DNA of 64,000 nt, taken from Octopus vulgaris (Eukaryota). The stretch spans positions 85,374,001 to 85,438,000 of the forward strand of contig OX597815.1 of assembly GCA_951406725.2 (NCBI GenBank), read 5' to 3'. Numbering within the stretch: the stretch's first letter is position 1; each line of letters starts with the position of its first letter. Both the position numbers and the translations under genes were made by a program. Under the pieces are notes generated by a model, which was given only the letters and a program-made list of their open reading frames with translations, was not told the origin of the DNA and did not search any database. Shown piece by piece: positions 48,201 to 51,200 of this stretch.

Positions 48201-51200
48201 ATTATTGCTTTGCATATTTTTATTTAACAGTAAGCTCCAGATTAAGGCAGTGGCAACAATAATAAAAAATATCACTAGTTTTAGAGTATTTAAACATAAT
48301 TGCTTGATGGTTTCACTTATATCCGAGTTCCTAAATTTATAATTGATATTCAGCTGCTTGATGTCAGTTATTAGGTAATAGAGAAACAGTAAAAGGTAAG
48401 CTATTCTGCAAAAGTTTCAAAAGAAACAGTATGAAAGATGAATGGCAGCAGCAACTGTAGCTAATGATTTTAAAATGTTTTTTTTTTTTTGATGCAACTG
48501 TCCACTAATAATTTCCTATTGTAGTGAGGATTTCTCAAATTCTGTAAGCAGTCACAACTTTAATAGATCTTTGCTTCCTGATTAATTTGTCTGTTTCTGT
48601 GTTATTGTTGCTACTCCACATTCTAACTGATATTATTGTTGTCCTAACTGAGTGGGTGCACTGCCTAATTCTGTGGCTTCCTTTTAGTCGCCCATCATGT
48701 TGTCTGAGCACTAATGACGATGGGGATGGGCCATGCTTGGCCCCCACCCAACCCTCCCTGTTTAGTCCCGCAGTGTTTTGTGCGTCCAATGGAGATGAAG
48801 AAAGCTGCAGACGAAGCGAAGATGAGATTTGCACACATCGATGGCGACCATTTGACGCTGCTCAACGTCTACCATGCTTTCAAACAAAGTAAGTTATTCA
48901 GCTTTATATATTTACTAAACTCTCGCTGATTTTAGTAATGAAATCTTAATTTCTTATTTCTTTATTCAGATTAACTAGGATCGTTTATTAAAACCATAGT
49001 AATTTTGAGTCTAAAGTAATTACTTCAATTAGCTTTAGTTTATTATAGTTTAAATTTTGATTCAATTGCATGGGTATGTTTTTATGAAAATTTAAAGTTT
49101 CATATTGTCATTTAAGTTTTTAGGATTTTTTAATTAGTGAATAAGGTGAAATATATTGAATTAGTGTATTTTAAGGGAATCTAATCAGCTTCCAGTTACC
49201 TAATCTAACCAGCTTCTAATTCTTGAATCTAACCACTTGCTAATTGTCTTTGAATGACCTAACTTTTCAGAATAATAAAGGAGAATTTTCCATTATCATC
49301 ATTATTACTATATTAGTATTGATATTGGTAAATTGCTTTTACTTTAGATCATGAAGACCCACAATGGAGTTACGACAATTTTGTGAATTTTCGATCTATG
49401 AAAAGTGCTGATAATGTCCGACAGCAGCTGGCCCGGATTATGGATCGATTTAATTTGCGTCGCTCAAGTACAGAGTTTGCAAGTCGGGACTACTACATCA
49501 ACATTAGGAAGGCTTTGGTAGCTGGTTTCTTTATGCAGGTTAGTAAAGTGTTCATAGTTCTAAACTTTGTTGACTGCCTGCTTTTTCGTTTGTCTGCAGA
49601 GATATATCAAATAGAATGGTTTTGTGATTGTGAAACCTGATTGCTTTGCTTCAGTTGGAAGGGATACTGCAGTGTAACTATATGGTGCAAATATGGTAAC
49701 TTTCTAAGTAGTTTTTGAAAACATCACAAATACATTTAGGTGTGGGGATTTTTTTTTTTCTTAGAAGAAATTGGTTAGGTAGAAAGTTGAGCTATATAAG
49801 CTATGTAAGAATACAGGAAAACCTAGAGAAATAATGAGCTCTAAGTGGGAAGCTTCTCCATGTTTGCTTACTTACTAGTAATGAATTGAATATATTATGA
49901 ATAATATTTAAAATGATTGATATTTATTAAACTTTATTCTTTACAAAATAAAGAAATGTAAAAATTTCAATTATTTTAAGAGCTTTGGTGGTCAGTAATA
50001 GTGTTGCATAATCTTTCTCGGGTGTCTTTCTACCAAACGACCTAGGTAAATAGAAGCAAGTAGTATTTAATGACTTTTAAGACAATAATGTAGGGTGTGA
50101 ATTCACAATCTGTGATGTGAATTAAGTTTTAATTAACTAAACATTTGACTCTTTAACTTTGATATGAGACCATAGATCTGCACCTAGCAAGTTTTGCTTC
50201 AGTTTGTGTTGACTAAGCACAGCATGGAAACACTGGATTGTCCTTTTGGGATGTGGTGTTCGGTCTTTCTATTCTACTGATATTCTCCAAGAGAAAGGCA
50301 AGTGTTGAAACAGCTTGACACAAGTGGTATTTCAAAAGCTGCCAGAGCAATGTTGGAGACAATATCAGACTGTCTTAGGGATCCCTACTCTTGATTTATA
50401 GTCAGATTGGACCAGGAAAGATATATGGCAAAGTTAATCTTTGATGGGATTTGAACACGTAACCTAAAGAACAGTACTGTAAGATATTTTGTCCAATGTT
50501 ATGCTTCTGCCATCTACCACCCATCAACCGACTATATATCACCTAAATGTACTTAGTTTAATGTGATACCTTTACTTACTTAGTACATCCTAAGATGGCA
50601 AACAAATTTTTGTTTTGTTAAATTCCTCAAGTGATTGTCTTTTTTTTTCTTAATACTATTCCATTTTATTGATTTAGTAGAGTGGGTGATTTTTAAACTT
50701 CAGCAATCTTCTATCCCATCACTCTGCACCTCATCTTTGTCTCTTCCCATTAGCATTTCCCTCCAATAAAGGTTATTATAATATTGTAAGAAATTGAAAG
50801 GGAGGCAAAGGGATAACTGTTTGAGCAATCCCAGTGTCTCATGATTGAGGTGACAACAGTTGTGTTCAACTTAAGCTAGTTTATTTAATCTTGGATATTT
50901 CAAACAATAAACTCAAGTCAGAGTGATTATGATCTTGAATTGCTTAATGTATCATTAGTTAAGACAATTTTGAAATTTAATTTCCATACTGAGGAATAGA
51001 AATGGTAATTAGTATTCTACATCCACAGTTCAAGTCTTTTTGGGATTGATAAAATAAGTACCAAGATAGTAACTGGGGTTGATTCGTCTTTCTTTTCTAG
51101 TTTAGGAAGGAATAGGTGCAAATGGTTGAGATTAGGGCGAATTCTATGCTTTGATTAGGGAACAGATGAAAATAGCAAAGATTTGCCTGTACTTTATGCT

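Follow-up and report, generated by a model that had tools for sequence, protein, structure and literature searches.

A conserved hairpin separating a distal branch-point motif from the exon 10 acceptor of the DHX15 gene

Conserved pre-mRNA structures that govern 3′ splice-site choice in the gene of an RNA helicase are best known from land plants. The DEAD motif, as described in two sources (10.64898/2026.01.23.701338; PMC12218528), is a conserved hairpin in the pre-mRNA of DEAD-box helicase genes (DRH1/RH46), associated with an alternative 3′ splice site that gives non-coding isoforms and proposed to sense the host helicase. There the stem is ~20 bp long, the unproductive AG is occluded at its base and the feedback is proven. 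The element described here belongs to an animal DEAH spliceosomal helicase, DHX15/Prp43; its stem follows the branch point, precedes the productive AG and contains no AG, the poison AG (48687) lies 33 nt upstream of the hairpin, and feedback is inferred. As a conserved structure at the alternative 3′ splice site of a helicase gene it would work like the DEAD motif, but by host gene and AG placement it is not a member of that family.

Three further systems share parts of this arrangement. In introns of Saccharomyces cerevisiae, stems between branch point and AG shorten the effective distance (PMC12350175), whereas the DHX15 stem belongs to a single orthologous intron in several bilaterian phyla, with no AG hidden inside it. 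For distal branch points that are conserved, a connection with slower splicing and with skipping of exons has been reported (Taggart et al. 2017, PMC5378181); the minigenes of that study have, besides the distal site, a second one in the expected zone of 10-60 nt, while most of the DHX15 introns have no nearer motif and their spacing of 41-65 nt falls at its outer limit. The SMNDC1 poison exon (PMC11357089), an example of autoregulation by alternative splicing coupled to nonsense-mediated decay (AS-NMD), likewise combines a deeply conserved intronic element, a spliceosome gene and a stop-bearing isoform; the DHX15 intron has no cassette poison exon, its conserved part being a structured branch-to-acceptor spacer, and its stop-bearing output is seen in coleoids only. 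The opposite pattern, unpaired branch-to-acceptor regions, is reported for microexons (PMC12871342).

DHX15/Prp43 discards early spliceosomes that are of poor quality; both leukaemia and SF3B1/SUGP1 mis-splicing have been connected with it. How its own level is set is not stated in the literature that could be searched, nor is the present element described there; the text or supplements of PMC6547761, PMC13247117, PMC12218528, PMC5959240 and 10.64898/2026.06.30.735655, looked up for DHX15, yielded nothing relevant. It is uncommon for fish, arthropods and lophotrochozoans to retain a short structured element in the same single intron.

Gene setting and predicted fold of the octopus element

The window, that is, the whole 64,000-nt stretch of DNA analysed, contains a 13-exon DHX15/Prp43 gene (12015-57271, tblastn) on the forward strand. 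Joined, its exons give an intact 735-aa frame without differences from P0125 (Octopus vulgaris / O. sinensis). The element under study occupies the final 80 nt of intron 9 (43371-48765; 5395 nt, GT-AG, phase 1). Exon 9 (43179-43370, donor at 43371) is defined by tblastn, a GT/AG check, the intact frame and contig joints, and exon 10 (48766-48888, 123 nt) by its match to solved DHX15 chains (6id1_V, residues 597-636).

The initial annotation placed a structure between the exon 10 acceptor and a branch point far upstream of it, and in this it was right. The motifs lie exactly where it placed them: the branch-point motif CACTAAT (48709-48715) has its A at 48714, 51 nt from the end of the productive TAG (48763-48765), and the hairpin spans 48721-48750. 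AGs end at 48687, 48708, 48765 and 48773, so that none lies between the branch A and the TAG. With the full hairpin formed, 6 + 15 = 21 nt remain unpaired, compared with 51 nt linearly, which agrees with the predicted shortening of the effective distance. The proposed link to a helicase is also plausible, as the host gene itself encodes the helicase DHX15.

Predicted folds, an RNAalifold consensus and pair counts all describe a hairpin with an outer stem (48721-48724/48747-48750), a 3x3 internal loop and an inner stem (48728-48733/48738-48743). The inner stem has a pairing probability of 0.96-0.99 in four folding contexts from 5 to 37 °C, and its predicted 6 bp between branch point and AG place it among downstream stems (at least 6 bp). 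The outer stem reaches 0.71-0.84 in two folding contexts. In the 48704-48777 context, the G-rich arm at 48719-48726 pairs instead with the U-poor pyrimidine tail (48755-48762) with a probability of 0.83-0.98, giving a closed fold. Because the outer stem and the arm-tail pairing flip between contexts, the balance depends on the context folded. Tail pairing also ranges from 0.22 to 0.81 across 21 loci, which argues against its being a fixed feature or a conserved switch.

The folding energy of the octopus sequence is not beyond that of its shuffles (z -0.69; 39 of 200 shuffles as good). Its composition, on the other hand, stands apart within the gene: GC of the last 60 nt is 60% compared with 18-32% at the other 11 acceptors, and among 1413 other intronic 60-mers two match the element's GC and nine its energy. 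No Rfam 15 family, intronic snoRNAs included, gave a hit in the window, and six weak hits in 48550-48900 were far under the gathering threshold. Pairing of the branch motif in cis with the TTAG acceptor was considered and rejected, its probability being at most 0.01 in the window with no co-adaptation across loci (p 0.32).

It had further been proposed that the hairpin competes with another helix in a bistable, temperature-sensitive switch. The complementary motifs GCCCATC (48690-48696), GATGGGC (48725-48731) and GATGGG (48719-48724) are present, as is the CAG at 48771-48773, but the folds do not bear out the switch. The pair GCCCATC/GATGGGC has a probability of 0.00 in every context and at every temperature tried, at a cost of 3.4-4 kcal; the CCCATC/GATGGG helix stays at or below 0.18 and can form alongside the inner stem. 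The outer stem does have a rival, but one with the tail (48755-48762) as the partner. By computation, the inner stem is constant from 5 to 37 °C, and the proposed pair does not yield two incompatible structures, close in energy, with temperature shifting the RNA from one to the other.

Conservation of the layout across animals

Orthologues were picked by the exon 10 peptide alone, as the best 80 of 376 metagenome loci; 58 of these have an intron at the position and 22 are without the intron or are transcripts. By our own reading of the folds, the hairpin layout is present in 55 of the 58 introns (34 of 37 distinct). From 5′ to 3′, the shared layout runs from a far-off branch motif through a G-rich and then a C-rich hairpin arm to a short U-poor tail and, mostly, TAG. 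It is absent from three loci with short introns (44, 70 and 90 nt). Close relatives were collapsed to 20 lineages plus the window. The nearest named proteins, which are coarse labels, are from teleosts (L008, L061), insects (L014, L017, L026, L066, the last 98% identical to an aphid protein), other arthropods (L057, L074, L079) and molluscs or other lophotrochozoans. Since the hairpin occurs in both protostomes and deuterostomes, it probably originated at or before the bilaterian ancestor. We are highly confident that the hairpin element is under selection, and much surer of this than of what it senses.

The geometry is also shared. In 17 lineages the branch motif lies 41-65 nt upstream of the AG, and across phyla the hairpin starts ~3-8 nt past the branch A, the branch points being motif picks, most by motif score and six set by hand. 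Mean pairing over 21 lineages peaks at +6 to +10 and at +14 to +18 from the branch A, with a dip at +11 to +13. Nearer branch candidates exist in L010 and L066. Spacers of 91-144 nt (L005, L013, L074, L079) have longer hairpins. In the arthropod-like L074 (~2295-2414) and L079 (~380-524), where the branch motif is 119 and 144 nt upstream, an A/U helix lengthens the hairpin and is followed by a long free pyrimidine tract and CAG. The aphid-like L066 has an 86-nt intron (305-390), most of it filled by a strong hairpin, with a branch candidate 13 nt from the AG.

We compared these acceptors with controls drawn only from other DHX15 introns, namely protein-anchored acceptors of the same loci. Across 25 target and 58 control acceptors (three of the latter are not intron ends), targets have higher GC (p 5e-8), more stable folding energy (p 9e-6), lower U (p 5e-6) and a different shuffle z (p 0.007). 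Among the 17 lineages with spacers of 41-65 nt (L005, L013, L074 and L079 left out), a branch-like motif 12-40 nt from the AG is present in 2 of 17 targets compared with 29 of 39 controls, and the acceptor is TAG in 16 of 17 orthologues compared with 9 of 39 control acceptors. An acceptor weight matrix was discarded because a fixed +1 T biases it and loci without the hairpin also score low.

In 93 of 136 pairs, the native halves give a better fold than halves exchanged across lineages (permutation p 0.014). With 8 loci aligned by MAFFT, RNAalifold gave a two-stem hairpin consensus; the same procedure on 21 divergent loci gave none, the arms being out of register. In an alignment fitted to the model (31 matches), and therefore biased toward it, 88% of cells are paired with 8 double-sided changes, a result matched by 0 of 500 shuffles, and slid controls reach 44-76%. 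A structure-blind alignment of 13 close relatives is 98% paired with 2 double-sided changes (29 of 500 shuffles). Related sequences are not independent, and covariation support is real but modest.

The model built from 8 loci finds a single site in the window, the next best scoring 13 bits. It recovers non-seed hairpin loci at 16-32 bits and misses L005, L024, L066, L074 and L079; because it includes 8 exon bases, an intron-less locus can reach 14.5 bits. No relative was found in viral contigs. Even without feedback, the element is a candidate for a new animal cis-regulatory RNA family.

Two observations concern other parts of the orthologous introns. In L055 a second copy of the acceptor and first exon bases (2771-2808) lies ~350 nt past the real one. 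In the fish locus L008, the intron's 5′ end (~1107-1146) corresponds to one shared peptide in several teleost read-through proteins (P0057, P0075, P0097), which suggests a second conserved element at the donor in fish.

For human, a presumed exon boundary would put chr4:24538840 and chr4:24538807 at distances of 43 and 10 nt from the acceptor AG of the orthologous intron. On this boundary the 43 nt would be close to the 44 nt of fish. Both positions are minus-strand entries in the searched part of the human branch-point file of Pineda and Bradley, with 32 and 4 lariats, respectively, and two neighbouring presumed boundaries occur in Taggart's table. The lariat branch point of the next human intron is also ~39 nt away, so the 43-nt site is a lead only.

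Splicing output, a proposed proofreading feedback and its alternatives

The two strongest facts about this locus are the cross-phylum conservation and the use of an upstream AG that brings a stop codon. Splicing output was read from contigs of 4 of 23 runs (X1, X3, X10, X11), which are presumed to be RNA. The canonical exon 9-10 joint of 5395 nt is present in three of them (X1, X3, X11). In X1 an additional 5317-nt joint connects exon 9 to the upstream AG at 48687, at a contig depth of 188.8 compared with 534 for the canonical joint; it is not among the joints listed for X3, X10 and X11. Competing acceptors, as initially annotated, therefore exist, with the upstream AG joined to exon 9 in one of four octopus runs. 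This acceptor is conventionally built, with a pyrimidine tract and TAG (48677-48687) and a branch-point-like CCTAAT (48664-48669; found by a rule scan, and probably in use) whose A at 48668 lies 19 nt before the AG. Its use extends exon 10 by 78 in-frame nucleotides (48688-48765) that include a TGA at 48705-48707. The isoform translates to a 540-aa product, and three junctions lie >50 nt downstream of the stop, which is 542 nt before the last junction. The isoform is thus a predicted NMD target, and a used junction with a premature stop >50 nt before a downstream junction makes it a candidate member of the AS-NMD class.

The same peptide ends protein P0131, which differs at 0 positions from P0129, at 3 from Sepia and at >20 from each octopod. 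P0131 is thus decapodiform-like, and the poison acceptor spans both coleoid branches. We conclude that the AG at 48687 is a real poison acceptor, used in coleoids and bringing a stop. Of five other lophotrochozoan-like loci, four (L048, L010, L011, L038) contain a comparable upstream module in the alignment. A uniform rule applied across loci, however, gives no support for generalising the poison acceptor: it finds a pyrimidine-rich YAG upstream in 7 of 20 loci and 11 of 40 controls (no enrichment), and one with a branch motif in 6 of 20 and 4 of 40. The unproductive output is therefore supported for coleoids only. Separately, the mollusc-like proteins P0066 and P0052 stop 2-3 residues past exon 9, Val first, as an upstream acceptor would give.

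The exonic CAG 8 nt downstream (48771-48773), use of which would shift the frame and lead to a stop in exon 11, had been regarded as a further competitor of the TAG, but it does not appear to be designed as one. CAG encodes the corresponding Gln in 17 of 21 hairpin loci and in 18 of 22 intron-less loci, and this similar share argues against selection on the site. No +8 joint is among those listed in the four runs, and the +8 frame is on record in P0132 and P0107, one of which is an anchovy annotation.

We give about even weight to the view that this bilaterian-wide cis-regulatory element keeps one DHX15 intron hard to splice and thereby places DHX15 under negative feedback. In such a scheme, DHX15 output would follow the discard activity of the spliceosome, most likely that of DHX15 itself. 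Three published observations frame it: repression by DHX15 falls on introns that have weak sites and several or distal branch points (Feng et al., 10.1101/2022.11.14.516533); nucleotides +8 to +13 from the branch point lie in the SF3B1 cavity, and DHX15 binds the RNA at its exit from SF3B1 (cryo-EM preprint PMC13041897); and a further study locates DHX15 at SF3B1 within an early activated complex. The hairpin would cover the nucleotides destined for the SF3B1 cavity and would have to open for stable U2 binding, after which it could refold and bring the AG to ~21 nt from the branch point. Slow assembly at this handicapped acceptor would expose the complex to discard by DHX15. High DHX15 would then lead to unproductive forms, through the upstream AG in coleoids and through retention or skipping elsewhere, and low DHX15 would let the productive site through.

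The fuller version of this proofreading feedback holds that the proofreader's own gene carries a native test substrate for spliceosome proofreading that pre-dates the protostome-deuterostome split, in which a hairpin on the RNA threaded through SF3B1 and gripped by DHX15 sets DHX15 dose via its own discard, with lineage-specific exits. We regard it as possible, somewhat short of an even chance. If it is true, and if the element is present in the human intron, it could serve as a native reporter of DHX15, G-patch and SF3B1 function and offer a means of adjusting DHX15 levels. The element is small enough for a minigene in which to ask whether a helicase engaged in proofreading reads out its own activity via a poor substrate, and the locus would be a natural case for how SF3B1 handles a stem right after the branch point.

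Four other explanations were weighed against the proofreading feedback. The first, which we consider unlikely, resembles the plant DEAD motif: the folded hairpin would be permissive, shortening the branch-to-AG distance, until DHX15 or another helicase melts it, whereupon the 51-nt gap would disfavour the TAG and lead to the poison AG or retention. The sign of the feedback would be the same, acting through unwinding and not discard. The drop in effective distance from 51 to 21 nt, the longer hairpins of the 91-144-nt spacers and the plant precedent are consistent with this, yet the conserved stem hides no AG, unlike that of the DEAD motif, and published models put DHX15 on U2-bound RNA via G-patch partners and not on free hairpins.

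According to a second explanation, the hairpin is an unregulated spacer that compensates for an old distant branch point, so that loss of either half harms splicing and the poison AG is a tolerated leak. Downstream stems are indeed common in yeast (21 of 88 introns, PMC12350175), three short introns do without the element and the upstream acceptor is not general. However, a nearby branch motif arises easily, as in the control introns, and is nevertheless rare in the targets; the poison peptide is identical in octopus and decapodiform, and its joint accounts for about a quarter of the X1 junction depth. We think this explanation quite unlikely.

Distinctly unlikely, too, is a binding platform for another regulator, such as a G-patch or RNA-binding protein at the internal loop, which would amount to cross-regulation and not self-sensing. 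Around the internal loop and inner stem, conservation extends to sequence in addition to pairing, and many pairs are invariant, but loop letters and stem lengths differ widely across phyla. The temperature-sensitive switch between the hairpin and a helix with 48690-48696 is very improbable, since, despite its complementary motifs, an outer stem that moves with temperature in some folding contexts (0.03 to 0.47) and a yeast thermosensor precedent among the citations of PMC12350175, its competing helices fare as given above, the inner stem does not respond and the upstream arm is not conserved across five aligned loci.

Other transcript features of the locus may bear on its output. Skipping of exon 10 (48766-48888) keeps the frame and gives 694 aa, and annotations of this form exist for proteins of salmonids, platypus and schistosomes (P0105, P0111, P0114, P0055, P0109). 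Skipping could provide a further unproductive exit, or the annotations could be artefacts; such artefacts are possible among read-through and exon-skipped proteins alike. Intron retention was set aside as evidence. The 3′ part of intron 9 is covered in all four runs (depths 48.6, 40, 11.6 and 13.9), and intron 10 has contig cover of 8.8 in X1, 3.8 in X3 and none in X10 and X11; retention was not counted because intron 11 is also covered (X3, X10), the runs are only presumed to be RNA and contig depth does not allow parts to be ranked. In intron 11 the 3′ part (52687-54355) has a contig depth of 38 in X11 and 99 in X3, which could reflect retention or another transcript. As to RNA editing, none of the differences listed falls in 48478-48793. 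Finally, an interspersed repeat at 44880-45056, which we take to resemble an octopus SINE tail, has related pieces near 47335 and 51035 and very high contig depth in all four runs.
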